Notes: generated from the letters alone by a model not told the origin. DNA of 64,000 nucleotides from Candidatus Wolfebacteria bacterium (GCA_024654025.1 JANLIR010000002.1:168959-232958), one strand, 5' to 3'. Shown: positions 3,075-43,649, counted from the stretch's first letter. Program-made: numbers and translations.

Positions 3075-4358
3075 ATGTATAATAATCGCCTAAAAATAGT
3101 TTTGTTCGGAGCCGGAGTTATTGCACTTATTTTAGTTGTTCTAAGTGTTTTTTGCGTAATTCCGATAACAAAAAATTGTTCAAAAACTTCCGTGTCCGGA
3201 AAATTAATTTTTTGGGGAGTTGACGATGTTTCCGCTTATCAAACCGTTATAGATAATTACAGCAAGTTTTATAATAGAAAAGTTCAAATTCAATACCAGC
3301 AAATCCCCGAAGCGGATTTTGAAAATACTTTTGTTCGGGCAGTGGCTAAAAATCAAGGGCCCGATATTTTAATGTTTCATAACTCCTGGCTTATAAAACA
3401 GGGCGATCTTTTAGCTCCGGCCACTGACGCGCAAATTTCTTTAGCAAATATTCGCCAGCTTTTCCCGCAGGTTGTTGAAAAAGATTTTACTTACCAAAGT
3501 AAGGTTTACGCGCTTCCTTTATATCTCGACACTCTCGCGCTTTTTTACAATAAAGATATTTTTAATGCTAACGCCGTTGTTTTTCCGCCGGCAAATTGGA
3601 GTGATTTTACGAATTTAGCAACGAGGCTTACGAAAAAACAAGCTAACGGCCAGATTTTACAATCCGGCGCGGCTATCGGCAGCTCTGATAAAAATATCGT
3701 AAACGCAACTGATGTTTTAAATACGTTAATGCTTCAATACGGTTCTTTAATAGTTGATCCATCTTTTATGCGAACTGATTTTAGCGGTAAAGCAACCAGC
3801 GCTTTTGATTTTTACACCGGCTTTGCCAAGCCAGCTAGCAGTAATTATGTTTGGAACCAAAATTTAGGAAACTCGTTTGATTTATTCAGCCAGGGGCAGG
3901 CGGCGATGATTTTCGGTTATGCTAACCAGATTTCATATCTCAAACAAAAAAATCCGCTTTTGAATTTCGAGGTGGCGTCTATGCCGCAGGCCGATCCTTC
4001 AAATCCTAAAAATTACGCCGCTTATTGGGGCTTGGCAGTTTCTTCTAAAAGCGCGAATTCCGAACTTGCCTGGAGTTTTATAAAATACCTGACAACTGAC
4101 CCGCAAAACTCTCTTACTTATCTTCAAGCGACAAAACGGCCGCCGGCTTTGAAAATTTTAATCAAACAATATCAGAATGATCCGGATTTAAATGTTTTTG
4201 CAAACCAAGCGCTTGCGGCAACTTCATGGTATCAGCCCGACTCTGACCAAACCAGCCAGATTTTTTCAAGCGCGGTCGAATCGGTTTTAAGCGGCCAGCT
4301 TACTTCTGGGCGCGCGCTGGAAAAAGCCGCTTCTCAAATAAATAATTTATTTAAATAA
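3075..4358 (+). CDS. Extracellular solute-binding protein (ABC-transporter family 1 SBP-like), orphan
   Basis: 427 aa with an N-terminal TM/signal anchor; sequence features resemble sugar-type substrate-binding proteins. No permease or ATPase genes adjacent. Confidence 0.5.
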   Translation: MYNNRLKIVLFGAGVIALILVVLSVFCVIPITKNCSKTSVSGKLIFWGVDDVSAYQTVIDNYSKFYNRKVQIQYQQIPEADFENTFVRAVAKNQGPDILMFHNSWLIKQGDLLAPATDAQISLANIRQLFPQVVEKDFTYQSKVYALPLYLDTLALFYNKDIFNANAVVFPPANWSDFTNLATRLTKKQANGQILQSGAAIGSSDKNIVNATDVLNTLMLQYGSLIVDPSFMRTDFSGKATSAFDFYTGFAKPASSNYVWNQNLGNSFDLFSQGQAAMIFGYANQISYLKQKNPLLNFEVASMPQADPSNPKNYAAYWGLAVSSKSANSELAWSFIKYLTTDPQNSLTYLQATKRPPALKILIKQYQNDPDLNVFANQALAATSWYQPDSDQTSQIFSSAVESVLSGQLTSGRALEKAASQINNLFK

Positions 4359-4363
4359 AATTT

Positions 4364-4702
4364 ATGAATATCGCATACGCTGCTCTAACTCCTTTAGTCC
4401 AATGCGGTCCCGGAACAGCCAAGCTCGAGTGCACTATTTGTGATCTATTTCAATTGGCTCAAAATATTTATAATTTTGTTATTGTTTTTGCGTTTGTTTT
4501 GGCTTTAGGAGCTTTGGTTTGGGCGGGGTTTAAAATAATGACTTCTGCCGGCGATCCGGGAAAATATAAAGACGCGGTTGGAAAAATCAGGACGATTTTA
4601 ATCGGCATAGCCATTCTGCTTTTAGCCGGGTTTGTGGTTGATTTAGTTTTGAAAGTCCTTGTCGGCGGCAGCTTGGGTCCGTGGAATAAATTGCCTTGCT
4701 AA
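4364..4702 (+). CDS. Type IV secretion pilin-like (TrbC/VirB2-like) small membrane protein, paralog 1
   Basis: 112 aa; two hydrophobic helices separated by a Gly/Asp/Lys-rich loop (…GFKIMTSAGDPGKYKDAVGKIRTILIGIAILLLAGF…), the pattern of CPR T4SS-pilin (PF18895-like) proteins. Confidence 0.4.
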   Translation: MNIAYAALTPLVQCGPGTAKLECTICDLFQLAQNIYNFVIVFAFVLALGALVWAGFKIMTSAGDPGKYKDAVGKIRTILIGIAILLLAGFVVDLVLKVLVGGSLGPWNKLPC

Positions 4703-4732
4703 AAAACCAAAAAAAATTTATTATAAATATTA

Positions 4733-5152
4733 ATGAAATCGCTTTTGTTTAAAATTTCTATAGTATCAGCGATAATTTTCGCGGTTTTTACCACGAGTAT
4801 TTTTGTAGAAAAAGTTTTGGCAGTGTCCGGTGGAGGGGTTAATACAGCGGCGCCGGGCGGCGGAGTTGATTCTGTTGGCGGCGGTAACGGACAGCTTTTT
4901 AATTATTTCGGATCCGGTTCGACTCTTGACAGTGTCCTTTCCAAAATAATCGATTATTTTATCGGTGTTTCGGTTTCAGTGGCTGTGATAATAGTTATCT
5001 ATGGAGCGTGGAAAATGATGACCGCGACAGGCGATCCTAAAAAATTCCAAGAAGGCCAAAAAACAGTTTTGTACGCCGCTATCGGGTTGTTGGTAATTTT
5101 ACTCGCAAGAGGGATTATCGGCGCGTTGTATGGGATAATACAAACGTTATAA
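4733..5152 (+). CDS. Type IV secretion pilin-like small membrane protein, paralog 2
   Basis: 139 aa; same architecture (…GAWKMMTATGDPKKFQEGQKTVLYAAIGLLVILLARG…) with a Gly-rich low-complexity insert (GGGVNTAAPGGGVDSVGGGNG). Confidence 0.4.
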   Translation: MKSLLFKISIVSAIIFAVFTTSIFVEKVLAVSGGGVNTAAPGGGVDSVGGGNGQLFNYFGSGSTLDSVLSKIIDYFIGVSVSVAVIIVIYGAWKMMTATGDPKKFQEGQKTVLYAAIGLLVILLARGIIGALYGIIQTL

Positions 5153-5192
5153 TAAATATAAAGAAAAAGGTCGAGAATGAGAAATCAAAAAA

Positions 5193-5558
5193 ATGAAAAA
5201 AGTTTTACAAAAAATTATTTATTCAGGAGCGATTTTATCGCTCGTATTGCCGGTATTTTCGTTTGCCGCGATATTTACTCCGCCAGGCCAGGGGCAACCT
5301 GGAAATATTCCTATAACCGGCCTCTCTAATGTGTATGACACGCTAGATACGGTAGCTAATTATTTGTTGGGATTATTAATTGCTTTGGCGGTTGTTTTCA
5401 TTGTTTGGGGAGCGTTTCAGTTTTTAACTTCCGGTGGAGATGAAGCAAAAACAAAAGCGGCAAGAAATCATATTCTCTGGGCTCTTGTAGCTGTCGCGGT
5501 TGGGTTACTTGCTAAAGGGCTAGTTGCCGCGATAAGAGGAATCGCCGGAAACTTATAA
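5193..5558 (+). CDS. Type IV secretion pilin-like small membrane protein, paralog 3
   Basis: 121 aa; signal peptide plus helix / loop (TSGGDEAKTKAARN) / helix. Followed by a hairpin terminator at 5582-5608. Confidence 0.4.
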   Translation: MKKVLQKIIYSGAILSLVLPVFSFAAIFTPPGQGQPGNIPITGLSNVYDTLDTVANYLLGLLIALAVVFIVWGAFQFLTSGGDEAKTKAARNHILWALVAVAVGLLAKGLVAAIRGIAGNL

Positions 5559-5581
5559 ATTTATTTTCAATGATTCAAAAA

Positions 5582-5608
5582 ATATCCCGAGTGTCGGGAT
5601 ATTTTTTT
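5582..5608 (+). terminator. Rho-independent terminator after the pilin-like triplet
   Basis: ATATCCCGA-GTG-TCGGGATAT hairpin followed by a T7 run. Confidence 0.6.
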
Positions 5609-5668
5609 ACTATTTTCATCCGTATTAATCCGTATGTATTTATAATTCGCACAAATCTGTTAGAAACA

Positions 5669-5716
5669 AAAAAATCCCCGCCTGCGGCCGAAGCCACAAG
5701 CGGGGTGTAAAAAACT
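5669..5716 (-). terminator. Rho-independent terminator (minus strand) after the GC-rich membrane-protein gene
   Basis: On the minus strand: CCCCGC…GCGGGG stem followed by ATTTTTTTG. Confidence 0.5.
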
Positions 5717-5728
5717 AGTTAGTTCACG

Positions 5729-6679
5729 TCAATAAATCTTCAGGAGACCCGGTTGTCCCATGGCCACTTTTATTGGGCCGAGCGGGTTTCCGTTAGTTTT
5801 CCATTTCCAAAAGCCAACCGGTCCCGCTTTCCGTGTTTCGCCGGAGCCCTCGCCAATTATGATCTGGTAAGAGTTTTGGGCGTCAATCGTTATGATTGTC
5901 CCAATGGGCGGGGTCCATGAAGTCACCGCAACGCTCCCGGCCGGAATAAAAACACCATTTCGTCCTTCTTCCGGCGTGACCACGATTTCTTTGAGAACCG
6001 GCGCACTGGGCGCAACCCCCGCTTCCGCGTTAGATGGTTTCATGGTGAGAGTCGTCACGATGCCATTGTCGATTCCCTTTGCTGAGTTCCTTGCGAGCTC
6101 GGCTGTGCGGGGAAGAAACAATGAAATGACGATTGTTATGAAAATCATCGATGCGACAAACGTTATTGCCCTTCCGTTGAAGATGGAAGTGCCTCCGAAA
6201 AGCCGAGTTCCGATAAAGATGATAAAGGCCAAGAGCAGCAGCAACGGGATCAGCTCGGGTCGTTTATCTATCGGAATGATGATAAGCATCAGGGCGAATG
6301 ATAACTCGGCGAATAATACGTGCAGCGTCAGTCGAACATACCGCTCTCCAAACCCCACTGCTGTTCTTCGCCAGATCGCGTCGATTATTAACGCAATCGG
6401 CGCGGCCAGTAAAGAAAGCAAGATCGTGAAGAACGCCCAAACAAGTCCCGCAACCGAAATCCACATCGAGAATCCGAAAATTCCCAGAAGCAGGATTGGT
6501 ATGGGCAGAAGCATCATTACGATTGCGAGCCGCGAAAGCCCGACCCGATATACTTCAAAATCGGTTCTGTTATCGCCCCCAACAAGGGCAATGACCTCGG
6601 CGGCGTCCGCCGCGCCGGTGATGATTGTGTCGAGAATGAGCCGCAGCGTTAAGAGTATTTCACGAAGTGTTTCACGCAT
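5729..6679 (-). CDS. Hypothetical multi-pass membrane protein with a C-terminal extracytoplasmic domain, in a GC-rich islet
   Basis: The tracked ORF is 5729..6784. The likely true start is the ATG at 6679 (MRETLREIL…), preceded by AAAGGAGG and overlapping the upstream stop (ATGCGTGA). About 5 TM helices, then a ~130-aa Gly/Pro/Thr-rich soluble tail. Local GC is roughly 55% against a ~38% background. Confidence 0.5.
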   Translation of the reverse strand: MRETLREILLTLRLILDTIITGAADAAEVIALVGGDNRTDFEVYRVGLSRLAIVMMLLPIPILLLGIFGFSMWISVAGLVWAFFTILLSLLAAPIALIIDAIWRRTAVGFGERYVRLTLHVLFAELSFALMLIIIPIDKRPELIPLLLLLAFIIFIGTRLFGGTSIFNGRAITFVASMIFITIVISLFLPRTAELARNSAKGIDNGIVTTLTMKPSNAEAGVAPSAPVLKEIVVTPEEGRNGVFIPAGSVAVTSWTPPIGTIITIDAQNSYQIIIGEGSGETRKAGPVGFWKWKTNGNPLGPIKVAMGQPGLLKIY

Positions 6680-13790: not shown

Positions 13791-15152
13791 ATGAATTTAG
13801 AAAAAATTTTAAATTTAGGAAGGAAAGTTATTCCAAAGCCTGTTTTTGAATTTTTTCAGCCAGCCTACCATTGGATGCTGGCTTTTTTAGGCGCTTTTCT
13901 TTACGGCTCTCCGTCAAAAAATATGATAATTATCGGAGTTACGGGCACAAAAGGCAAAACTACCACTTGCGATCTTATTGCTCAAATTTTAAATTCGTTC
14001 GGCTATAAAACCGCGCTTGTTACCACTGCCTTGGTGCGCATAGGAGACGAGGAGTGGAAAAACGAGCATAAACAAACAATGCTTGGCCGGTTTAAGCTCC
14101 AGAAATTTTTAAGCCAAGCCGACGAGTTAAAATGCCGGTACGCTGTTGTGGAGACATCTTCAGAAGGTATTTTGCAATACAGGCACCGGTTTATAGATTA
14201 TGATGTGGCGGTTTTTACCAATCTATTCCCTGAACACATAGAACGCCACGGCGGTTTTGAAAATTATAGAAACGCTAAAGTAAAATTATTCGAAAAACTG
14301 GCAAAAAAAGACAACGGAATAGGAATTTATAATTTAGATGATTCGGATGTTAATTATTTTTTGGAGCCCGGAATAAAAACAAAAATAGGATATACAATAA
14401 ATAACCAACGACCAACAACTATTAATCAAGAACTCATGGAATCTTTGCAGAAAATTATCGAAGTTAAAAATATTGAACAGGGACTAGACGGATCGAAATT
14501 TTCAATTAATGGCGAGAGATTCAAAACTCCCCTGATAGGAGAATTTAATGTGTACAATGCGGTAGCCGCTATTACTGTTGCGATATCCCAAGGTGTTCCG
14601 CTTAATAAAATAAAACCTATTATTAGCAGAGCAAAACAAACTCCCGGCAGATTGGAAAAAGTAGAAAACGAAAAAGGATTCACGGTCATTATTGATTACG
14701 CGCATGAACCGTTTAGTTTGGAATCGGTTTACAAAGCAGCCGCAAGTTACAAAGCGAAACCTAAAAGTTCTATGTTGTGCCTTTTGGGAGCCCAAGGCGG
14801 CGGACGAGACAGATGGAAGAGGCCGAAAATGGGAAGTATCGCCGCTCAATATTGCGATAAGATAATTTTAACAAATGAAGATCCTTACGACGAAAATCCA
14901 AATCAAATTTTAGACGATATCGAGGAAGGCGTTCGAGCTGGATTTCGCAACAATCCAAAAAAATTCGCAACCGTAAATAAAATTATAGATAGAAAAGAAG
15001 CAATCCAAAAAGCTGTTTCTCTTGCGAAAAAAGGCGATGTTGTGGTTTTAACCGGTAAAGGCGGAGAAACATTTATGTGTATTGAGAATAATAAAAAAAA
15101 TCTCTGGGATGAAAAAACGGTTGTTGAAGAGGTATTGAATAGTTTCTCATAA
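13791..15152 (+). CDS. Mur ligase family protein (MurE-like UDP-N-acetylmuramoyl-tripeptide synthetase)
   Basis: 453 aa. P-loop GVTGTKGKTTT, Mur-ligase middle-domain motifs (VVETSSEG, LFPEHIERHGGFENYRNAKVKLF) and C-terminal domain (LCLLGAQGGGRDRWKRPKMG). MurE vs MurF is not resolvable by eye. Confidence 0.7.
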   Translation: MNLEKILNLGRKVIPKPVFEFFQPAYHWMLAFLGAFLYGSPSKNMIIIGVTGTKGKTTTCDLIAQILNSFGYKTALVTTALVRIGDEEWKNEHKQTMLGRFKLQKFLSQADELKCRYAVVETSSEGILQYRHRFIDYDVAVFTNLFPEHIERHGGFENYRNAKVKLFEKLAKKDNGIGIYNLDDSDVNYFLEPGIKTKIGYTINNQRPTTINQELMESLQKIIEVKNIEQGLDGSKFSINGERFKTPLIGEFNVYNAVAAITVAISQGVPLNKIKPIISRAKQTPGRLEKVENEKGFTVIIDYAHEPFSLESVYKAAASYKAKPKSSMLCLLGAQGGGRDRWKRPKMGSIAAQYCDKIILTNEDPYDENPNQILDDIEEGVRAGFRNNPKKFATVNKIIDRKEAIQKAVSLAKKGDVVVLTGKGGETFMCIENNKKNLWDEKTVVEEVLNSFS

Positions 15153-15217
15153 TGGTGTAGCTTTTTAAAAGTTTATTTGTCAGAAAAAAATCATATTACA
15201 TAGAGGAGGGGGTAGCG

Positions 15218-15718
15218 ATGGATAAGCAGATCTACTATGGGTTGCTGTCTCTTATTCCTATTTCGGGCATTGTTCTAGTTACTGTCACTGCAATTTTATT
15301 GATTGTAAAGTTGAGGGCGGTTAAGGGGCAAACGATAATAGTGCTTTTTATAATTGGAGTTGCTCTATGCGAGCTTCGGCCGCAAGAATTAAAAAACGTC
15401 ACGATTTTTTCTGAGTTGCCAGACAATCGTTATCAAATTGCCGGTCAAGTGCCAACAGTTAATTATGCGATAATTAGCTACAAGGGAAGAAATGGAATCG
15501 ATGTGGTAATGGTTAAGGATGTTCCGGGCGATTTAAAATTAGGCACGATTTTTGTCATTAAAAATGGGCAGGTGGAAATAGAGTGGCAACCGGAAGACCA
15601 ACAAGAGGAACAACAAAAAAAAGAACAAAAAGAAGAGACAGAGGAATATAGATTCGGTCCGTATGATTTTCGTATCAGGGCGGCCTCCAAAGATAAGGAG
15701 GCTGCTTTTTTTGCGTAA
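15218..15718 (+). CDS. Hypothetical membrane protein with acidic C-terminal tail
   Basis: 166 aa; strong RBS (GAGGAGGGGG); two TM helices, then a Gln/Glu-rich tail. Hairpin terminator at 15722-15745 (GGTCCCT-TATGC-AGGGACC). Confidence 0.4.
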   Translation: MDKQIYYGLLSLIPISGIVLVTVTAILLIVKLRAVKGQTIIVLFIIGVALCELRPQELKNVTIFSELPDNRYQIAGQVPTVNYAIISYKGRNGIDVVMVKDVPGDLKLGTIFVIKNGQVEIEWQPEDQQEEQQKKEQKEETEEYRFGPYDFRIRAASKDKEAAFFA

Positions 15719-15729
15719 AAAAAGGTCCC

Positions 15730-16017
15730 TTATGCAGGGACCACCTCAACTCCTTTCTTTTCCGGGGGGTTTCTCCGAAAATATTCTTTGGCCTTGTCGC
15801 AGGCCGCGGCAAAAGCGGCCGGCGCGACAACGTAGTTGTGAGTGTCACGCGTGTGCGCGCCCGGCTTAAATCTCTCATTAAGACCGCCGGCTGTTACGAT
15901 ACGACGACCGAAGCGTGTCTTGTGACGGAAAGGTATAACAACCCCCTCTGTCCAGACCTGAACGATGTTTGGGTTGCCAAGCTTCTTTCCTGTTTCGAAA
16001 ACCCAGACATTCAGCAA
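15730..16017 (-). CDS. Small hypothetical protein in a GC-rich islet (TTG start)
   Basis: 95 aa; start TTG preceded by AGGAGG at a 6-nt spacing. Local GC is about 52%. No recognisable motif. Confidence 0.35.
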   Translation of the reverse strand: MLNVWVFETGKKLGNPNIVQVWTEGVVIPFRHKTRFGRRIVTAGGLNERFKPGAHTRDTHNYVVAPAAFAAACDKAKEYFRRNPPEKKGVEVVPA

Positions 16018-16031
16018 GTTGCGCCTCCTTC

Positions 16032-16214
16032 CTAATAGTGAAAGGTCAGGATCGACTTCATGAAAGCGGGATACCGAGAAGTCAGGATCACCATCATGAA
16101 GGCGAACACGGTCATGATCAGCATCCCTCTGAATATCGGCTGGAAAAACCTGCGAGTGAAGTGGTCATTCCGCTTCCTTTTGCTGTTGTGCTTCTGGTTC
16201 GTATAAATAAACAT
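16032..16214 (-). CDS. Possible small hydrophobic protein in the GC-rich islet (very tentative)
   Basis: Internal ATG (MFIYTNQ…) preceded by GGGGGGTG. The tracked ORF 16032..16229 uses a TTG start. It could also be non-coding. Confidence 0.2.
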   Translation of the reverse strand: MFIYTNQKHNSKRKRNDHFTRRFFQPIFRGMLIMTVFAFMMVILTSRYPAFMKSILTFHY

Positions 16215-16303
16215 TTTCACCCCCCACAAAGATTTTTTACGATCTGGCTAAATAGTAGCATATTTTTTAAAGTTTGTAAAGAGGGGTAAAATAGCCCGTC
16301 TAT

Positions 16304-16687
16304 TCAGAGATTTATATTCTTGTAATGAGAAATGATGGGGTTATTAGTGTTGTTTAGGGTTATAGCAATTAAATCAATTCGCCACCCCATTTCCTTATTT
16401 ATTAAGCCTTGATTAGCGCCTGAATATAAAGAGGCGGTTCTGGCTACTTTTTTAAGCTTAGAAGCAGTTAATTGATCCTCGGGTTTTAGGTTGAAATTGG
16501 TAGATTGTTGGAGGGTTTTGACTTCTATAAAAACAAGAGTTTTGTCGTGGTCTTTAGCTATGATATCTATCTCTCCCCACGGCTTCCTATAATTCCGCTC
16601 AATAATCCGGTATCTATTGTTGATTAAGCACTCGCAAGCCAAATCTTCGCCTAATTGCCCAGTTTTTTGTTTATCTGTTGAATCCAT
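16304..16687 (-). CDS. YraN-family (UPF0102) predicted endonuclease
   Basis: 127 aa; GEDLACECLINNRYRIIERNYRKPWGEIDIIAKD…LVFIEVKT matches the YraN/UPF0102 signature. Confidence 0.7.
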   Translation of the reverse strand: MDSTDKQKTGQLGEDLACECLINNRYRIIERNYRKPWGEIDIIAKDHDKTLVFIEVKTLQQSTNFNLKPEDQLTASKLKKVARTASLYSGANQGLINKEMGWRIDLIAITLNNTNNPIISHYKNINL

Positions 16688-16767
16688 CCAGTATTTTTGT
16701 TAGTATTTTATAAATGTTGCTCGGGTAAACATTATTTAAATTGTACCACGTGTAATACGATAAACAA

Positions 16768-17199
16768 ATGCAAACAAAAAAAATTACAGCAGAATATATT
16801 AGGGGCTTTATTGAGGGCGTGGGAACTTTTACTTTCACAACCTCGTCACGGGGTTTCAATAAAAAGGTTAAAATACCAACTTTTCAATTAAGAATGAATA
16901 TTCGAGATAAACGGTTAATTGAATTGATTAAAGGACATCTCGGACTTAAAAATAGGGTTTATATGTATCATTATCCGGGAACTGATGGCGCAAAACGAGG
17001 GCCACAAGCGATGTTAATAGTCCGAGAAATAGGTAATCTGAAAAATATAATCATCCCTTTCTTTTACGATAAGCTGGTTGGGTATAAAGCAGCCCAATTT
17101 AATAAGTGGCTTGAAAGAATAGGTAAAGACTCGGAAGTGCCAGAGGGATTTAAGATTCTATACCGTCTTCATAAATCCGGTTGGTTTTCAAAGAAATAG
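16768..17199 (+). CDS. LAGLIDADG-family homing endonuclease (single-motif, free-standing)
   Basis: 143 aa; YIRGFIEGVGTF is a LAGLIDADG-type motif (cf. LAGFIDGEGSF). The size fits homodimeric I-CreI-like enzymes. Confidence 0.6.
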   Translation: MQTKKITAEYIRGFIEGVGTFTFTTSSRGFNKKVKIPTFQLRMNIRDKRLIELIKGHLGLKNRVYMYHYPGTDGAKRGPQAMLIVREIGNLKNIIIPFFYDKLVGYKAAQFNKWLERIGKDSEVPEGFKILYRLHKSGWFSKK

Positions 17200-17483
17200 C
17201 ATTAAAATGGTTTAGTAGGTAAAAATACTAATTCGGCAATGGTCATTGCCGAATTAAAATAGGGGTTTTGCCGAATTAAAATGTTGGGAATGTTTTACAA
17301 CCAACACTTTGAATCAAATTTTAAGGGTCTAAAGTGTCAAAAATGTTTATCAAGTTTTGATAAACAATCTTTTACGACAGATTAGCTTAAAATTGGGCTA
17401 AAAAGTGTTTATCAAGTTTTGGCAAACATTTTCGGAAAGTTTAGTAAATAGTTCGGCAATCCGTTATTTGATGGATTGCCGAA

Positions 17484-18137
17484 CTAATAGGACGCGAAAA
17501 TACCCTTTGCCCACCCCCGGATTTTTAAAGATAGCCCAACATTACAGATGTAGATTTCAAAAGTTCCATAAGGAAGGCCCTCTTTTTTGGATTTTGTGGC
17601 TCTTTTTACTGAGAGTTTGAAAAACTGCTTTAAAGGGATGCCGGAAATTTCCGACCAGTATTTTTCTGTTCCCCGATGATCAAGGTGGGGATAGATATAA
17701 ATATGCCCCCGGAATTTCTGTTCCGGAACCTCACAAACATCCCTAAAAAAGGCCATCATTAACCTAACTATATTCGGGTCGCTGTTTGAGAACCGGACAA
17801 GGCCTTTTTGGGTTTTCCCACACCCTGCCCAATACAAAACCGAGCCAATTAGCCAAAGCTCACTTCTAGTTATTTTCTTTACCTGCTTTTGCGCTTGGTC
17901 GATAAGGTTTTCTCGTGTAGCTGTTTCCCGAGCCAGTCTGGTTGCGCGTCTTTTTTCCACTACCGAAAGCTTTACGGCGCGCTTTGATAGCGTTTTCTCC
18001 TGGTCTTTAGTTAGCGCGATGTTGCGGACCCATAAGCTCGCGCTACTTTTTGAAACGTTTAAGTTTTTCGCGATCTCGTTCAGAGAGTAACCATAAGCTC
18101 GGAGTTCTCGCGCTTTTTGTTTTTCAGCCTGCTTCAT
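17484..18137 (-). CDS. HTH plus LAGLIDADG-like domain protein (possible degenerate homing endonuclease / maturase-like)
   Basis: 217 aa. N-terminal sigma70-region-4-like HTH (LRAYGYSLNEIAKNLNVSKSSASLWVRNI). C-terminal segment SELWLIGSVLYWAGCGKTQ…VRLMMAFFRDV resembles a LAGLIDADG helix lacking the acidic residues. Confidence 0.35.
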   Translation of the reverse strand: MKQAEKQKARELRAYGYSLNEIAKNLNVSKSSASLWVRNIALTKDQEKTLSKRAVKLSVVEKRRATRLARETATRENLIDQAQKQVKKITRSELWLIGSVLYWAGCGKTQKGLVRFSNSDPNIVRLMMAFFRDVCEVPEQKFRGHIYIYPHLDHRGTEKYWSEISGIPLKQFFKLSVKRATKSKKEGLPYGTFEIYICNVGLSLKIRGWAKGIFASY

Positions 18138-18220
18138 AATCGAACTGATGAAGATATTTACTATGCTGAATATAGCATACAGGTTCGATTATTACAATAA
18201 AAAGAAGTTTGATTTCTGTG

Positions 18221-18290
18221 CGCGTTGAGGGGATTGAACCCCCGACCTGTCGCCTAAGGCGACCGTTCTAACCAACTGCTCCGACGCTTC
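18221..18290 (-). other. tRNA-like sequence, apparently degenerate (pseudo-tRNA)
   Basis: Minus strand: D-arm-like GAGCAGTTGGTTAGAAC, arm GTCGC-CTTAG-GCGAC with only a 5-nt loop, good T-arm GGGGG-TTCAATC-CCCTC. The 3' strand AACGCGC has no complementary 5' acceptor strand. Preceded by the hairpin CTCCGAC-CGAAGC-GTCGGAG. Confidence 0.3.
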
Positions 18291-18339
18291 GGTCGGAGCC
18301 CCGACTTCGTATTAGCGAACGTCGGAGAGCTAAAAATTG

Positions 18340-19184: not shown

Positions 19185-19206
19185 CTCCTTATTATAGCAA
19201 AAAAAG

Positions 19207-19278
19207 TGCGAGTGGCAGGGATCGAACCTGCGACGGCCGTCTTATAAGGGCGGTGCTCTACCACTGAGCTACACTCGC
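19207..19278 (-). tRNA. tRNA with anticodon TAT (reads AUA; Ile-type)
   Basis: GCGAGTG-TA-GCTC-AGTGGTA-GAGC-A-CCGCC-CTTATAA-GACGG-CCGTC-GCAGG-TTCGATC-CCTGC-CACTCGC-A. One C·A mismatch in the anticodon stem. Anticodon UAU, not the usual bacterial CAU-lysidine. Confidence 0.55.
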
Positions 19279-19394: not shown

Positions 19395-20333
19395 CTACTT
19401 CAAAGTCGTAATCGGCCTGCTTTGGACAATATAAAATTTATTTTTTTCAAAAGCCCATTCAATGTCCTGCGGTTTTTTATAATGATTTTCTATATTTTGG
19501 CATATTTGTGCCAACTGTAAAATATATTTGTCGGCCAGTTTTTGTTTTTCTTGCTTGGCTTTCGGCACGATAGTTTCTTTAACTCCGCTTCCGTCTCGCA
19601 CAACCATCATTTCCTGCTTTGAAATGTTTGAGTCCAAAATATTTCTGTTTGTTTTGTGAATTACGTAAGTGTCAGGAGTGATTTTGCCCCCGACAATCGC
19701 TTCGCCCAATCCATACCCGGCCTCAATTACCATCTGGTCATAATCTTCGGTTACTGGGTGTACCGTAAAACAGATTCCGGAAATTTCCGATTGAATCATT
19801 TTCTGCACCACAACTGCCACTAAAACTTTTTGCTTATGAAGTTTTTTTTCAAACCGATAAAAAATCGCGCGTGGAGTAAATAGCGATGCCCAGCATTTTT
19901 TAACATTTTCCAAAAGATTTCCCTTTGAAGTATTTAAATAACTTTCCAATTCTCCGGCCCAGGAAGCGGTAGAAGAGTCCTCGGCTGTGGCTGAACTACG
20001 TACTGCCACATATTTTGTTTTCAGCTTGGCGAATTCAGTTAAAATTTCTTTGGCGATATCTTTGGGAAATTTAGCGTTTAAAATTAAGCTCCTGATTTCT
20101 TCAGAGACCTTTTCAATGGAGTTTATATCTTTGACTTTTACTTTGTGGAGCTGGGCTTCTATCTCAACGTCAATATCGGTTTCTTCCAAAAACCTATCAA
20201 AAGCCCCAGCCAAAACCACAAATCCGGGCGGCACCGGAATTCCGGATTTTATCATTTCGCCAAGCGAAGCTCCCTTGCCTCCGGCAATAGCAGCGTCTTT
20301 TTTTGAAAGTTTGTTAATTTTTTTAATAAACAT
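19395..20333 (-). CDS. PEP-utilising enzyme N-terminal ATP/nucleotide-binding domain protein (PPDK_N-like; PEP synthase / rifampin-phosphotransferase ATP-grasp module), stand-alone
   Basis: 312 aa. GGKGASLGEM and VAVRSSATAEDSSTASWAGELESYLN match the PEP synthase / PPDK N-terminal domain. No swivel or PEP-binding domain in the same ORF. Confidence 0.75.
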   Translation of the reverse strand: MFIKKINKLSKKDAAIAGGKGASLGEMIKSGIPVPPGFVVLAGAFDRFLEETDIDVEIEAQLHKVKVKDINSIEKVSEEIRSLILNAKFPKDIAKEILTEFAKLKTKYVAVRSSATAEDSSTASWAGELESYLNTSKGNLLENVKKCWASLFTPRAIFYRFEKKLHKQKVLVAVVVQKMIQSEISGICFTVHPVTEDYDQMVIEAGYGLGEAIVGGKITPDTYVIHKTNRNILDSNISKQEMMVVRDGSGVKETIVPKAKQEKQKLADKYILQLAQICQNIENHYKKPQDIEWAFEKNKFYIVQSRPITTLK

Positions 20334-20366
20334 AATCTACATTTTAACAGCCCAAACCGCTTATAT

Positions 20367-21965
20367 CTACCTTCCCAAATGCAAAACTTTTCTATGATGA
20401 GGATTTGATGTTTTTTGGGCTTGAACCGGAATTATCTTAAAATTATTTTTTGATTTTTTTATCACCGTCACCTTCCCGGAATTTGCGTCAACCTCAACCA
20501 GGTCGCCGTCTTTTAATGATTTTGTAGCTGTCTTTGCTCCGATAATGCATGGTGTTTTAAGTTCTCGAGCCACAATCGCCGCATGGCACAATAAACCTCC
20601 CTCATCGGTGACAACGGCGGAAGCTTTTTTTATTAAAGGCACAAAATCCGGCGTTGTCATAGAAGTAACTAAAACGTCTCCCTCTTCAAATTTTCCTTTT
20701 TCTGACCTTGGGTCAAAAATAATTTTAGCTTTTCCTTTGACCCTTCCTTTATATGCAGTAAACCCTTTTAGTATTTGATTTTTTGAGGTTTCTATCTTCT
20801 CGTGCCAGTCTTCTTTTTTGACGCCGGTCCATACTTTAATCGCGTTTCCGACTTGTTTTATGGTGGCTCCTTTTAATATTCTTTCTCTGACTATTTTTTT
20901 TGGATTATTTTTTCCCAAAAGACCCTCAATAATTTCTTTTTTGGAAAGAAGCCAAAAATCGTCCGCTTCTTCCAATTTCAATCTGTCTATAATTTCAAGG
21001 TAAAAATCCCAGCAGTGCACGAAGTAGTTATAATAATTTTCTTCATCGCAGTTGCGGTAGCCCATCATTTTTCTGAGCCAGAAAATATGTTTTGTTATTT
21101 TGGAATGTTTTTTTAGTTCGGATAAAATTTTCCCCACTATTTTTCGGCTCTTTTCTTCTTCATTATTTATTTTTCTTATTTCGGCTTCGGCATCGGTTTT
21201 TAAGTGTTTCAAAAACCGTTTGTCAATGTCCCCAAGCTTGTAATAATTGCCGTCGTGTTTAAAACTGCATCCGCCGAATTTATACCAATGGCCGAAAATA
21301 ATTTTTTTAATCTTTTTGTCCCGCCAGTTTTTTGAAGTCCTGTATATTTTTTGTATCTTAATTAATTTTTTCAAAAAATTCAGCCGCTCGGTCTTAACCA
21401 TTGAATTTATGCCCACAGATGAAAGAGTTTGCAGAATTTTTCCAACATCTTTTATTTTCAGCTCAGAAGAAAATTTGTCCAATTCTTTTTTGACTAGGCG
21501 GGGAAGAAGATTAACCAAGTCGTAGACGACGTAATAGCCGGCCAGCGCCCGGCGGTGATAATAACCGTGCTTTTCCAATATTTTTACCAGATCGCCGTTT
21601 GTCCTGCTTTTGTAAAAACCGGCACCTTTGGTAAATATTTGATCGGTTATTTTTTTAAAATCCGCGTAAGATTTGAAAAAATATTTTTCCAGCCTGCTGA
21701 AATAATTTTTATCTTTCAGTAAATCGCCGGCGACTCCTTCCAGAAATTCGTCTTCAATTTTACTGTCCCAATAAATAAAAAATTCCCTGGGATTGCCCGA
21801 TCTGGTAGAAACGTATTTAACCCAATTGCCGTAATTTCTTTTATAAGGATCTCCTTTCCAATTTAAAATAGTTACTTTTAAAGTTTCTTCTTCAGAAAGA
21901 ATATCCAGTACTCTGACCATTTTTTCAATGTTATCCGGATTGGAAAAGGGTTTATACCTGCTCAT
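20367..21965 (-). CDS. Uncharacterised ~420-aa domain fused to a C-terminal PEP-utilising-enzyme mobile (phospho-histidine swivel) domain
   Basis: 532 aa. The C-terminal ~100 aa (…VTDEGGLLCHAAIVARELKTPCIIGAKTATKSLKDGDLVEVDANSGKV) is a canonical PEP-utilisers swivel domain with the catalytic His. The N-terminal part is Lys/Tyr-rich with no recognisable motif. Start overlaps the upstream gene by 4 nt. Confidence 0.7.
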   Translation of the reverse strand: MSRYKPFSNPDNIEKMVRVLDILSEEETLKVTILNWKGDPYKRNYGNWVKYVSTRSGNPREFFIYWDSKIEDEFLEGVAGDLLKDKNYFSRLEKYFFKSYADFKKITDQIFTKGAGFYKSRTNGDLVKILEKHGYYHRRALAGYYVVYDLVNLLPRLVKKELDKFSSELKIKDVGKILQTLSSVGINSMVKTERLNFLKKLIKIQKIYRTSKNWRDKKIKKIIFGHWYKFGGCSFKHDGNYYKLGDIDKRFLKHLKTDAEAEIRKINNEEEKSRKIVGKILSELKKHSKITKHIFWLRKMMGYRNCDEENYYNYFVHCWDFYLEIIDRLKLEEADDFWLLSKKEIIEGLLGKNNPKKIVRERILKGATIKQVGNAIKVWTGVKKEDWHEKIETSKNQILKGFTAYKGRVKGKAKIIFDPRSEKGKFEEGDVLVTSMTTPDFVPLIKKASAVVTDEGGLLCHAAIVARELKTPCIIGAKTATKSLKDGDLVEVDANSGKVTVIKKSKNNFKIIPVQAQKTSNPHHRKVLHLGR

Positions 21966-22285
21966 TTCAAAATTTTTACGATTCCTTTGTTTAAGTCCAT
22001 TTCAACCCTGTCGCCGTCTTTTAAAATTTTCGTGGCGTTTTTCGTACCCACAATACAAGGAATGCCGAATTCCCGAGCTATAATTGCAGGATGAGAGGTG
22101 ATTCCTCCTCTATCTGTGATTATGGCAGCCGCTTTTATGATAATTGCCGCGAAAGAAGGATTGGTTAATTCCGCAACTAAAATTTCCCCTTCTTTAAAAT
22201 TTTTAAAATCCTTGGGATTTTTAATGATTTTTACTCTGCCCTTGGCTTTCCCTTTGTTTGCAACGATCCCTTTTATTTCTTTCAT
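21962..22285 (-). CDS. Stand-alone PEP-utilising-enzyme mobile (phospho-histidine swivel) domain protein
   Basis: 107 aa; …ITDRGGITSHPAIIAREFGIPCIVGTKNATKILKDGDRVEMDLNKGIV. Overlaps both neighbours by 4 nt (translational coupling). Confidence 0.75.
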   Translation of the reverse strand: MKEIKGIVANKGKAKGRVKIIKNPKDFKNFKEGEILVAELTNPSFAAIIIKAAAIITDRGGITSHPAIIAREFGIPCIVGTKNATKILKDGDRVEMDLNKGIVKILK

Positions 22286-23346
22286 AAATTGTAAATTTTT
22301 TTCAAGTATGCCACCCCTACGTATTTCTCATACTCCTTTTTATTTTTCGGATAGGACATTTTTATAAAACCTGTTTTTAAGCGCTTATCTTTTATTTTTT
22401 TAACCATTTCTTTATCCGGACGCCAATTTAAGCCAGCCAAATTAAATAATCCCCTTAATTCATAAGCTTGCTGTTCTAAAAATTTCAATTTTGTTTTTTC
22501 AAAATTATATCCCTTTGCCTCAAGATAAATTTCTCCGGTTTTCTCCGCTATTTGCCGGATTAATTTTTCAATTTTAAGGCCAGTCGCTGGTTTTCCGTTC
22601 AACAAAACCAAATATTTAAACAATTTTTTGGCATAGTCCTTATCCGCTAAAATATGAGTAGTTACAAAACGCATTTTGAGTCTTGTGTCTTTGTATAAAA
22701 CCAAAATCATTATTTTTTTAAATTTAAAATTTTTTAATTTAGGCCACAGCTCTTTAGGAAACAAATCAAGGTAATTCTTTATAAGCAGAGAATGATTTTT
22801 ATATTTGTAAGGACCTTCGTTAAAATAACCATATTCGGTTGAATAATCGTTGTAAAGCGCGTGGTTATACATCGCTAAAATACCGCTTAATTTAGATATA
22901 TTTGCCTTTTCTTTTTCGCCGGCAACTTTCAATTTTAGGATAATTCTGCTGATTTCTTCTTTTGTTCTTAAAACACAACTTTTTTCATTAAATAGATTTT
23001 TATCTTTGCTTATCCAAAGCATGTACTTTATGAAAAAGTCAAAAATAGTTTTTGCTTTTTCTTTGTCATAATTAAAATAAGCGCCCATATTCACAAGCGT
23101 ATAAAATATATATTTTATGGAGCCATAATTAGAAAGGTTCGCTAAAATTTTCTTTTGGGATATTTTTTTGCTTTCAATTATCTTAATGGCGGAATAAATT
23201 TTATCCATCCAAAGTTTGAAATATAAAGGATAAAATTTAAAGGCATTGAATGGCAGATGAGATGCCGGGTCGTGATCGCCGAAAGTAAAATCCTTTACGG
23301 CATCAGAATAATCCCGTATCCATTTATTTGGATTCCAATTATTCAT
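22282..23346 (-). CDS. Uncharacterised protein (possible substrate-binding partner of the adjacent swivel domain)
   Basis: 354 aa, Lys/Tyr/Asn-rich, no recognisable motif. Same operon position relative to a swivel domain as the N-terminal part of the 532-aa protein. Confidence 0.45.
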   Translation of the reverse strand: MNNWNPNKWIRDYSDAVKDFTFGDHDPASHLPFNAFKFYPLYFKLWMDKIYSAIKIIESKKISQKKILANLSNYGSIKYIFYTLVNMGAYFNYDKEKAKTIFDFFIKYMLWISKDKNLFNEKSCVLRTKEEISRIILKLKVAGEKEKANISKLSGILAMYNHALYNDYSTEYGYFNEGPYKYKNHSLLIKNYLDLFPKELWPKLKNFKFKKIMILVLYKDTRLKMRFVTTHILADKDYAKKLFKYLVLLNGKPATGLKIEKLIRQIAEKTGEIYLEAKGYNFEKTKLKFLEQQAYELRGLFNLAGLNWRPDKEMVKKIKDKRLKTGFIKMSYPKNKKEYEKYVGVAYLKKIYNL

Positions 23347-24196
23347 TTTGTTCTTCTATTTTTACCTCAAATTCTTTTCCGCGCCATACAATTTTTATTT
23401 GATCTCCGCCGATTGTTATGGTCGCGCCTTCCGTGGTGTCTGTAAGCTTTTCATCAGAAATTTCCTTAAAACTTTTAGGAGAAACTTCTCCCGTGATCAG
23501 TTTCAAAATAGCCGCGTCTAAATCCCAGCGGTGGGAAACAGCGCCAATGACCACAGGCCTTTCAGGGAAATATTTTTTTGCAAATTCATGAAGCCTGTCT
23601 AATCCAAATAAGTACTCTTCCGCTACGGTTTCCGGATTTGGACCCTCTGATCCTTCTATGTTTTCTCCTTTGGTATGAGACCATTCTTCAAAAGCTCCTT
23701 CTTCGTTATCGCCATATTTTTTGTCCAAATAATCGTAATATTCAAAATTGTCTTTTTTAGCGTCCCAACGGCGGTCAAATGAAAGTTCTTTAACAAAAAG
23801 AGGAAAATCAACCACTATTTTTTTGTTTTTATTTTCGTCGCTCTCAACTATTTCAATGATTTTTTTAATTGCGGATGAAATTGATCCGGTTTTTCCTGCT
23901 TGGTTTAAAATTTCCTCTTTGATTAAAACCAACACGGTTTCATCGTTTTCATACAACGTTTTCAATCCTTCGCCTGCCGCAATGGCCGTTGATTTGGTTC
24001 TTGCGAGCTCTGTGGCCCCTCCAATATAAATTAAAGCTCTATCAGGAGCGTTATCTATAATTTCTTTTATTTCCCTAGCTTTTTGTTCCTTGGCTTTTTC
24101 AACGCCTTTTTCGCTAAGCCCGGGATGAGTTTGCGATTCCGGGTTTTTCTCATCCGGCTTATCCGAATGTCTTAAAATAAAAAACTTCTTTTCCAT
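23339..24196 (-). CDS. Histidine-phosphatase-superfamily (PGAM/SixA-like) protein, tentative
   Basis: 285 aa. N-terminal FILRHSDKPDE… (RH[G/S] motif) and a later GAVSHRWDLDAAI (second catalytic His). Acidic inserts. 8-nt overlap with the downstream gene. Confidence 0.45.
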   Translation of the reverse strand: MEKKFFILRHSDKPDEKNPESQTHPGLSEKGVEKAKEQKAREIKEIIDNAPDRALIYIGGATELARTKSTAIAAGEGLKTLYENDETVLVLIKEEILNQAGKTGSISSAIKKIIEIVESDENKNKKIVVDFPLFVKELSFDRRWDAKKDNFEYYDYLDKKYGDNEEGAFEEWSHTKGENIEGSEGPNPETVAEEYLFGLDRLHEFAKKYFPERPVVIGAVSHRWDLDAAILKLITGEVSPKSFKEISDEKLTDTTEGATITIGGDQIKIVWRGKEFEVKIEEQNE

Positions 24197-24228
24197 TGAT
24201 AAAATTATACAGAAATCCGGCGGTTAAT

Positions 24229-24257
24229 AAAACAGGTCGCCTGAGGCGACCTGTTTG
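24229..24257 (-). terminator. Terminator downstream of ftsH
   Basis: AAACAGGTCGCC-TGAG-GCGACCTGTTT, a perfect 11-bp stem flanked by A/T runs. Confidence 0.6.
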
Positions 24258-42874: not shown

Positions 42875-42890
42875 TTTTTGTTTTTTATAG

Positions 42891-43204
42891 TGGAAGCGGA
42901 GGGATTGAACCCTCGTCCGCAAATTTTTTTAAAAAAAATCTACAAGCTTAGTTCGTGAGAACAATTTTGCTCCTTATTCTCGTTTCGGATATCGGAGCGT
43001 TTCTCCGAAACAATCCCAATTTATTACACCAGCTAATCCCTTATTGGGAGTCAGAGGCTGATGGCTTAAGCTTTAACCGATTGGTTTAGGCGAAAGCGAA
43101 TGCCGGTTTATTGGCAATTATTTGTTGGTTCGTTGATTAGCGAGGTGACGCGCCATCCTCGGCCTGCATTTTTTTAAGAACAATCTGCGTCGAAACTTAC
43201 ACTC
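42891..43204 (-). ncRNA. ssrA: tmRNA (SsrA)
   Basis: 5' end GGGAGTGTAAGTTTCGACGCAG…; tag reading frame GCC AAT AAA CCG GCA TTC GCT TTC GCC TAA = ANKPAFAFA*; 3' tRNA-like end GCGGACGAGGGTTCAATCCCTCCGCTTCC-A. Acceptor 5' GGGAGTG pairs with 3' CGCTTCC (two G·U). Adjacent to smpB. Confidence 0.8.
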
Positions 43205-43649
43205 CCTTGAATTTAGCCGTTCTCATTTCTTTTTCTACGTCTCTTTTCTTGATCACTTCTCTTTTGTCAGATTTCTTCCGGATTCGCCCAAGACCGAATT
43301 CTATTTTAATCCGGCCCGAAGCGTTTTTAGTATAAACTTTTAAAGGCACCAAAGTCAAGCCTTTTTCATGAGTTTTGCCTATCAGAGTATTGATTTCCGC
43401 GCGTTTCAAAAGCAGCCGTCGAGTTCGTTTAGAATCATAATTTTCCGGCATGTTTTTGGGCTGGTAAGGAGGAACATCGGCGTTAATCAGCCAAGCTTGG
43501 TTTTCTTTTGTTACGACGTATGACCCGGACAAATTAATTCTGCCGCTTTTTATTGATTTTACTTCAAATCCGAGCAGTTCAATGCCGGCCTCGTATTTAT
43601 CGAGGATATCATAATCGAAATATGCGCGTTTATTTTCGGCTAAAGCCAT
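43197..43649 (-). CDS. smpB: SsrA-binding protein SmpB
   Basis: 150 aa; NKRAYFDYDILDKYEAGIELLGFEVKS…RTRRLLLKRAE is canonical SmpB. Confidence 0.9.
   Translation of the reverse strand: MALAENKRAYFDYDILDKYEAGIELLGFEVKSIKSGRINLSGSYVVTKENQAWLINADVPPYQPKNMPENYDSKRTRRLLLKRAEINTLIGKTHEKGLTLVPLKVYTKNASGRIKIEFGLGRIRKKSDKREVIKKRDVEKEMRTAKFKGV

Follow-up and report, generated by a model that had tools for sequence, protein, structure and literature searches.

A five-gene operon on the minus strand of a 64,000-nucleotide stretch of Candidatus Wolfebacteria DNA (GCA_024654025.1 JANLIR010000002.1:168959-232958; hereafter the window) probably encodes a multi-component dikinase system of the rifampin phosphotransferase (RPH)/phosphoenolpyruvate (PEP) synthase type, in which two acceptor modules are accompanied by a phosphohydrolase. 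The genes, designated g1 to g5 in order of transcription, specify the candidate phosphohydrolase (g1), a stand-alone domain termed X (g2), a stand-alone phospho-His swivel (g3), a second acceptor domain fused to its own swivel (g4), and a separate ATP-grasp protein (g5). In the proposed mechanism, g5 would bind ATP and transfer its β-phosphoryl group independently to the swivel His residues H65 in g3 and H461 in g4, with release of AMP and Pi. The phosphorylated swivels would then move to their acceptors, g3 to the X domain of g2 and the g4 swivel to its own RPH-like N-terminal domain, and each acceptor domain would phosphorylate its own bound substrate, most likely a small molecule and a different one in each module. 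g1 would take phosphate off again, the likeliest target being the phosphorylated product or a later intermediate, and phospho-His a less likely one. The scheme is built on the domain identities, the conservation of both catalytic His residues, the gene order, fusions of X to swivel or PPDK_N domains, and the recurrence of phosphatase partners; the direction and chemistry of phosphotransfer would follow those of the homologous RPH, HpeHI, and PpsAB enzymes. Use of g5 by both modules is presumed because the operon and the window contain a single PPDK_N gene, and the target given for g1 is likewise presumptive.

The dikinase assignment is anchored by three of the five proteins. Pfam identifies g3 as a PEP-utilizers swivel (PF00391, 1.2e-27), residues 426-497 of g4 as a second swivel (PF00391, 5.9e-26), and g5 as PPDK_N (PF01326, 1.8e-105, model positions 3-312 of 328). 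The catalytic His is present in both swivels, as H65 within GGITSH in g3 and as H461 within GGLLCH in g4, the latter invariant across 30 homologues, and the two swivels are 51% identical. Matches of g5 in the PDB include PEP synthase (8a8e, 3e-74) and RPH's ATP-grasp domain (5hv6/5fbs, 1e-65), and the best-scoring models for g5 and both swivels are those of PEP synthase. Pfam finds no PEP-utilizers_C barrel (PF02896) in any of the five proteins, and because this domain was tested for and is absent, the operon does not encode PEP synthase or pyruvate phosphate dikinase (PPDK). The possibility that g2 and the N-terminal domain of g4 are themselves such barrels was rejected. Hidden Markov models (HMMs) made for this analysis detect no further swivel or PPDK_N copies in the window. 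A first-pass annotation of the same DNA had described PEP-synthase/RPH domain logic split into parts, comprising a stand-alone swivel, a second swivel within a 532-amino acid protein, a stand-alone PPDK_N domain, and no PEP/pyruvate-binding TIM barrel, and the Pfam and NCBIfam domain content agrees with it on each of these points. Its suggestion of a two-substrate phosphotransfer fits a gene content of one ATP-grasp domain for two swivel modules.

The relationship of g4 to RPH extends beyond the swivel. Residues 264-501 of g4 align to residues 627-865 of Listeria RPH (5fbs/5hv1) at 1.4e-18 with the single sequence and 9.4e-27 with the family profile, and within this alignment the ~130 residues from ~264 to 395 correspond to the end of the rifampin (RIF)-binding domain, so that at least the last third of the g4 substrate domain is homologous to it. 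Among the NCBIfam "RPH-like" models, the PRK06241 family aligns from g4 residue 250 and RIF_Ptrans_rph from residue 285, both to the end of the protein. The NCBIfam PRK08296 models match g4 on the swivel only. No similarity to RPH is detected in the first ~260 residues. The g4 homologue P0030 (820 amino acids), 45% identical over 93% of g4, carries PPDK_N, middle, and swivel domains in one chain. Comparison of the g2 and g4 families with hhalign gives a match only on the swivel of fused members and no relation between the acceptor domains. The first-pass annotation had described two unrelated, uncharacterized domains; the lack of relationship holds, as does the novelty of g2, but the N-terminal domain of g4 is now partly accounted for by its last ~130 residues, and only the first ~260 lack an RPH match.

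Judged from these alignments, g4 and g5 form a two-component relative of RPH comparable to HpeHI, PpsAB, and AcvAB. These proteins, together with CreHI and PasAB, are known as two-component small-molecule dikinases, in which the RPH ATP-grasp domain has its counterpart in one subunit and the RIF-binding and swivel domains have theirs in the other; AMP is the product, mutation of the His abolishes activity, and HpeH alone moves phosphate between substrates (PMC12167813; PMC7500099).

The other acceptor candidate, g2, founds a new domain family. Neither g2 alone nor its family profile has a match in Pfam, NCBIfam, or PDB sequences. An AlphaFold model made from 12 homologues is confident (pLDDT 87.9, pTM 0.89) and is helical in its N-terminal half and at its C terminus, with a β region (residues 175-254) between. 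No fold neighbor was found for this model, which thus appears to represent a fold with no solved structural relative, and the earlier description of the 354-amino acid protein as unknown stands. The family is nonetheless large. A word-index search returns 11 relatives, and an exhaustive profile search returns 411 clusters at 50% identity (E<=1e-3), 265 of them at E<=1e-10. Across the wider family, Y165, D167, G178-P179-Y180, P197, W201, Y218, W308, and P310 are conserved at 80% or more, and H231 and K286 at ~75%.

Domain architecture links g2 to dikinase chemistry. Among the best 149 relatives of the 411 clusters, X is stand-alone in 129, preceded by a swivel in 15, duplicated in tandem in three, followed by a swivel in one, and fused to PPDK_N in one (P0187, confirmed by Pfam). 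Two further X-swivel proteins, P0010 and P0011, join the end of g2 straight to a swivel exactly at the g2/g3 boundary, and the fused swivel of P0011 shares 57% identity with g3. All loci with a split g2 have g3 directly 3' of it. Swivel fusions in either order, together with the PPDK_N fusion, argue that g2 is the presumed substrate-binding or phosphoryl-acceptor domain of a dikinase split three ways.

Gene neighborhoods, annotated in related loci (L numbers) with HMMs built from the window families, define what is constant in the system. Eight loci retain the order g1, g2, g3, namely the window, L006, and L014 to L019, of which L019 lies on a different contig from L001 and is nearly identical to it. 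Identity of g2 to that of the window is 99% in L014, 90% in L015, and 76% in L006. PPDK_N lies directly after g3 in L015, L006, L007, and L020 and directly before g1 in L016, L017, and L019/L001. In both L015 and L006, g4 is missing and g3 abuts the PPDK_N gene, and the absence of g4 from relatives this close indicates a recent insertion. The conserved core is thus g1-g2-g3 plus one PPDK_N gene, with g4 a recently inserted second module; the first-pass view of a single five-gene block gives way to a strain-specific insertion of g4 into the smaller module. In L006, the g2 orthologue is broken by a one-nucleotide indel in an A8 run (1730-1745), the remainder being intact in another frame, which points to an error in the assembly or to an inactivation of very recent date.

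Three loci (the window, L006, and L011) are syntenic in the order ftsH, cassette, tRNA-Ile(TAT), dedA, tRNA-Val, and differ in the cassette itself. The window has g1-g2-g3-g4-g5 and L006 has g1-g2-g3-g5; L011 combines g1 with a g4-like gene (621 amino acids), a PPDK_N::X::swivel fusion (678 amino acids), and an X-swivel gene (342 amino acids). GC content is 0.385 for g1, 0.298 for g2, 0.373 for g3, and 0.362 for g4, versus 0.398 for the window, and the low value of g2 relative to its neighbors and the window suggests a different history or a strong compositional bias. The differing content of syntenic loci and the lower GC content of the cassette mark the tRNA-side slot as an apparent hotspot of dikinase module exchange. 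A tRNA-Ile with a TAT anticodon is an uncommon bacterial route for decoding AUA; the gene lies 3' of the cassette in L006 and L011 as well and may anchor recombination at the variable slot.

Related loci of the Candidate Phyla Radiation (CPR) have between one and four X-swivel genes for a single PPDK_N (four in L009, at least four in L004, four in L012). In all-against-all BLAST with swivel and PPDK_N masked, the X parts fall into five or more families unrelated to one another, none of which has a Pfam match. A literature search on swivel-domain proteins in Patescibacteria yielded no paper describing these CPR cassettes. A tentative, rather doubtful generalization is that CPR bacteria share a hitherto undescribed modular phosphotransfer platform in which one ATP-grasp "charger", free or fused swivel-His carriers, at least five fast-changing X families, and a phosphohydrolase belonging to each cassette would reversibly phosphorylate host-derived metabolites, glycans, or toxins, with modules swapped at a tRNA-flanked hotspot.

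Further variants occur in individual loci. In L008, an RPH-type PPDK_N-X-swivel gene (14880-18324, minus strand) is split into parts of 232 and 574 amino acids by a 330-amino acid open reading frame (ORF) at 16607-17599 with the Fic/Doc-like motif HPFTDGNKR, which suggests that insertion of a mobile or toxin-type gene interrupted the ATP-grasp domain of a dikinase gene. L003 (4047-5315) and L008 (13310-14590) each encode a fusion of a GHKL ATPase (HATPase_c_3), a Morc S5-like domain, and a C-terminal swivel, adjoining a short His_Phos gene and a g2::swivel fusion and, in L003, also a TrmB regulator; this fusion may represent an alternative, non-ATP-grasp means of charging the swivel His.

The remaining core protein, g1, is quite probably a divergent member of the histidine phosphatase superfamily. 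Its sequence is 100% identical to a protein assigned by NCBI to a Candidatus Wolfebacteria metagenome-assembled genome, which places the window in the CPR. The family alignments are invariant at R9-H10, R66, T70, and H222, and the resulting RH(S)…R…H pattern is that of the catalytic residues in branch 1 of that superfamily. The best PDB match of the family profile is the putative phosphoglycerate mutase 3eoz, in the RH..R region and weak (E=0.02); fold matches are weak as well. The model contains a ~120-residue helical insertion and a C-terminal three-strand extension, and the family is small, with 10 clusters in a word-index search. The label "His-phosphatase-like" given at first pass therefore keeps the support of the motif and of weak fold and profile matches, but not that of Pfam.

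Recurrence of phosphohydrolases beside the cassettes provides the context for g1. Genes of the g1 family occur in the window, L001, L004, L006, L011, and L014 to L019; PF00300 proteins above the Pfam threshold occupy the same cassette position in L003, L004 (11190), L008, L009, and L010; and a Metallophos protein is the cassette partner in L013 (6618-7505). Counting all three types, 10 of the 12 independent cassettes have such a partner. Matches of the g1 HMM to L003, L004:11190, and L004:13119 were not counted as evidence, since these sequences are in seed alignment A3 and the matches are circular. Adjoining the g2-family cassette of L012 is a NUDIX gene (4302-5835), and this gene and the Metallophos protein of L013 suggest non-orthologous replacement of the phosphatase partner. 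One-to-one tracking of phosphatase subfamily with X family, which would have spoken for a product phosphatase, was considered and rejected, as the g1 family adjoins the X families Xa, Xb, and Xd.

The target of g1 is less readily assigned than its superfamily. Action on the phosphorylated product has somewhat short of an even chance, with AcvF beside AcvAB as the precedent for a product phosphatase in a dikinase operon. The histidine phosphatase superfamily also includes the phospho-His phosphatase SixA, and a SixA-like g1 could instead reset the swivels of g3 and g4, giving a regulated phosphorelay with the same dikinase logic. Orthologues of g1 head cassettes with different X sets (Xa only in L015/L006, Xb and Xc in L011, Xd in L004), which would suit a target that every module shares, for instance the conserved swivel. 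A single swivel target would not, however, need several divergent phosphatase paralogues in one cassette, as found in L004, which has three, and the partner in L013 is a non-homologous Metallophos enzyme; characterized dikinase operons use product phosphatases, and g1 carries its helical insertion. Helical caps are typical of small-substrate members of the superfamily rather than of minimal SixA. Resetting of phospho-His is accordingly rated unlikely, and the probability that is left falls to other roles for g1, for example as a mutase or in a relay.

Several observations weigh against a two-module dikinase with a dedicated phosphatase. g1 has no Pfam match above threshold, including PF00300, its catalytic loops are modeled with low confidence, and its comparison with the PF00300-positive partner phosphatases by hhalign and HMMs is not significant. 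An orthologue of g1 persists in the syntenic L011 beside different X modules and without g2, which argues that g1 is not specific for the g2 product and is compatible with the phospho-His reset. g2 has no recognizable catalytic motif, and no PPDK_N lies within 7 kb in L018. If kinase and phosphatase acted on one compound, the result would be a futile cycle unless a step intervenes, and the operon contains no enzyme for such a step. The neighboring genes, ftsH, dedA, and tRNAs, give no clue to function or substrate.

A role of the dikinase in detoxification or resistance, in which the X and RPH-like domains, in the manner of RPH or zearalenone phosphotransferase, would bind antibiotics or toxins of host or neighbor origin for inactivation by phosphorylation and module turnover would reflect an arms race, is improbable, even though it draws on several features of the system. 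g4 is homologous to the RIF-binding domain of RPH, module content varies among syntenic relatives at a tRNA-adjoining site of low GC content, genomes carry several X-swivel paralogues, and RPH family members are widespread small-molecule dikinases, some of which act on antibiotics (PMC12167813). A partner phosphatase would, however, reverse the inactivation, the operon lacks an efflux or regulator gene, and the RPH homology is limited to the end of the binding domain, which is silent on the ligand. PADLOC, used to search for anti-phage defense systems, returned nothing apart from a sub-threshold JukA match for g4.

Reversible phosphorylation of a sugar or glycan, as performed in plants by glucan water dikinase (GWD) with the phosphoglucan phosphatases SEX4/LSF2, would have the X domains bind carbohydrate and the phosphatase act after processing. 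In GWD, a substrate-binding part is followed by the His domain and a C-terminal nucleotide-binding domain, and the enzyme is functionally paired with a phosphatase; the order of X, swivel, and PPDK_N mirrors this arrangement. The most conserved X residues are mainly aromatic (Y165, Y180, W201, Y218, W308), TrmB-type regulators adjoin the L003 and L013 cassettes, and genes resembling glycoside hydrolase (GH) families GH1 and GH10/42 adjoin L010. Set against these features, no X domain has a match to a carbohydrate-binding module (CBM) or any other carbohydrate-related Pfam family, the contextual hints are few and lie outside the window, and aromatic conservation is not specific for carbohydrate, making this reading quite improbable. 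Both the carbohydrate hints (TrmB, glycoside hydrolases, aromatic residues) and the antibiotic hints (RPH homology, turnover) are weak.

A ppsA/PPDK gene broken up and decaying, or a regulatory set resembling PEP synthase (PPS) and lacking enzymatic activity, can be dismissed as very improbable: the top scores of PEP synthase models for g5 and both swivels, and a PPS-like protein reported as a regulator in Haloferax (PMC10948481), are outweighed by the lack of a PEP-utilizers_C remnant, the presence of two swivels rather than one, the conserved catalytic residues, and a split layout kept in relatives in which g2 identity to the window falls as low as ~45%. Pseudogenization of ppsA specifically is ruled out by the intact ORFs, by the short overlaps at three of the four junctions, and by the occurrence of the split layout in many genomes and of fused versions of different pairs.

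The multi-component dikinase operon is compact (Table 1). Its limits in the ORF listing match exactly the 19395-24196 given at first pass, and its description as five co-directional genes, mostly overlapping by 4-8 nucleotides, is correct: g1 and g2 overlap by 8 nucleotides, g2/g3 and g3/g4 by 4 each, and g4 and g5 are separated by 33 nucleotides. The hairpin that follows the end of ftsH (24267) reads ACAGGTCGCC-TCA-GGCGACCTGT-TTTT directly from the sequence and is followed by TGTATAAT. The TATAAT box ahead of g1 is not listed by a consensus scan. With the hairpin and this box upstream and the tRNA-Ile(TAT) gene downstream, the five genes look like a transcription unit of their own.

Table 1. 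Coordinates of the operon genes, the parts of g4, and the flanking signals, numbered from the first letter of the window
Feature	Position	Strand	Description
Terminator-like hairpin after ftsH (upstream boundary)	24229-24254	-	GC-rich, with T-run; read from sequence only
TATAAT box (upstream boundary)	24204-24209	-	promoter-like, 7 nucleotides ahead of the g1 ATG; read from sequence only
g1	24196..23339	-	285 amino acids; first gene of operon
g2	23346..22282	-	354 amino acids; stand-alone X domain
g3	22285..21962	-	107 amino acids; stand-alone phospho-His swivel domain
g4	21965..20367	-	532 amino acids
g4 residues 1-395	20781..21965	-	substrate domain, C-terminal third RPH-related
g4 residues 396-532	20367..20780	-	second swivel domain and short C-terminal tail
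g5	20333..19395	-	312 amino acids; stand-alone ATP-grasp (PPDK_N) nucleotide-binding component
tRNA-Ile, anticodon TAT (downstream boundary)	19206..19278	-	ARAGORN and Rfam

The cassette is flanked by ftsH, tRNA-Ile, and dedA, and other elements lie farther away. A LAGLIDADG-type ORF of 143 amino acids (16768-17199, plus strand), whose L011 counterpart matches Pfam LAGLIDADG_1, and a 217-amino acid ORF (17484-18137, minus strand) both lie between UPF0102 and tRNA-Val. This neighborhood as a whole is syntenic with L011, and L006 has the 217-amino acid ORF at the corresponding site. A tmRNA gene with the tag peptide ANKPAFAFA occupies 42888-43206 on the minus strand.

The assignment has consequences for genome annotation. 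Genes of this kind are routinely labeled "PEP synthase/PPDK", which can introduce a false gluconeogenic step into CPR metabolic reconstructions; absence of the pyruvate/PEP domain and membership in the RPH-type small-molecule dikinases correct the label. The g2 X domain, with 411 clusters and neither a Pfam entry nor a structural neighbor, is clearly delimited as an object for structural work and for a search for its substrate. Phosphatase pairing and module turnover among close relatives suggest a possibly adaptive trait linked to the way CPR bacteria live, as scavengers or epibionts, and if the substrates are antibiotics, sugars, or salvaged metabolites, the system would constitute a new route of ATP-driven capture or inactivation.

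The system can be compared with several established families. g1 shares its RH(S)…R…H pattern with histidine phosphatases of branch 1 (PhoE, CobC, dPGM, SixA) and differs from them in failing PF00300, in its helical insertion and three-strand extension, and in the tiny size of its family. PEP synthase and PPDK have in common with the operon the PF01326 ATP-grasp domain (g5), PF00391 swivels with their His, and the GGxTSH motif (g3), and the swivel-X order in 15 of the 149 X relatives mirrors their swivel-barrel order, but the barrel is absent here and the acceptor domains are unrelated. The likeness to GWD with SEX4/LSF2 lies in domain order and phosphatase pairing; the differences are the lack of a CBM, the separate proteins, a phosphatase of another superfamily, and a bacterial CPR host. 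RPH (5fbs/5hv1) and the related one-chain dikinases PigC/RedH and zearalenone phosphotransferase contain the same ATP-grasp domain, substrate domain, and C-terminal swivel, and P0030 is fused likewise. RPH is a single polypeptide with ATP-grasp at the N terminus, whereas here the ATP-grasp protein has a gene of its own, g5, downstream of g4; the central RIF-binding-like domain and C-terminal swivel of RPH are represented in g4 (the former in the C-terminal third of the substrate domain only), and g2 lacks this feature.

The closest comparison is with dikinases of the HpeHI/PpsAB type, PpsAB being phenylphosphate synthase; enzymes of this type turn ATP into AMP and Pi and pass the β-phosphate by way of the His to a phenolic substrate. 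g4 and g5 share their layout of an ATP-grasp subunit and a subunit with RIF-binding-like and swivel-His domains, and the operons of the Acv and phenylphosphate systems also contain a phosphatase gene, as this one probably does. Unlike those systems, the conserved core is split three ways, with X, swivel, and ATP-grasp as separate proteins, X shows no relationship to the RIF-binding-like domain, two modules apparently depend on a single ATP-grasp domain, the phosphatase partner resembles His_Phos rather than HAD enzymes, and neither the window nor the related loci provide a carboxylase or aromatic-catabolism context. The split RPH-type dikinase mechanism is thus already known, and by homology g4 and g5 belong to this kind; what is new is the three-way split, an unrelated X acceptor with no solved relative, the apparent sharing of one ATP-grasp protein, a systematic phosphatase partner, and cassette-like variation at a fixed locus.

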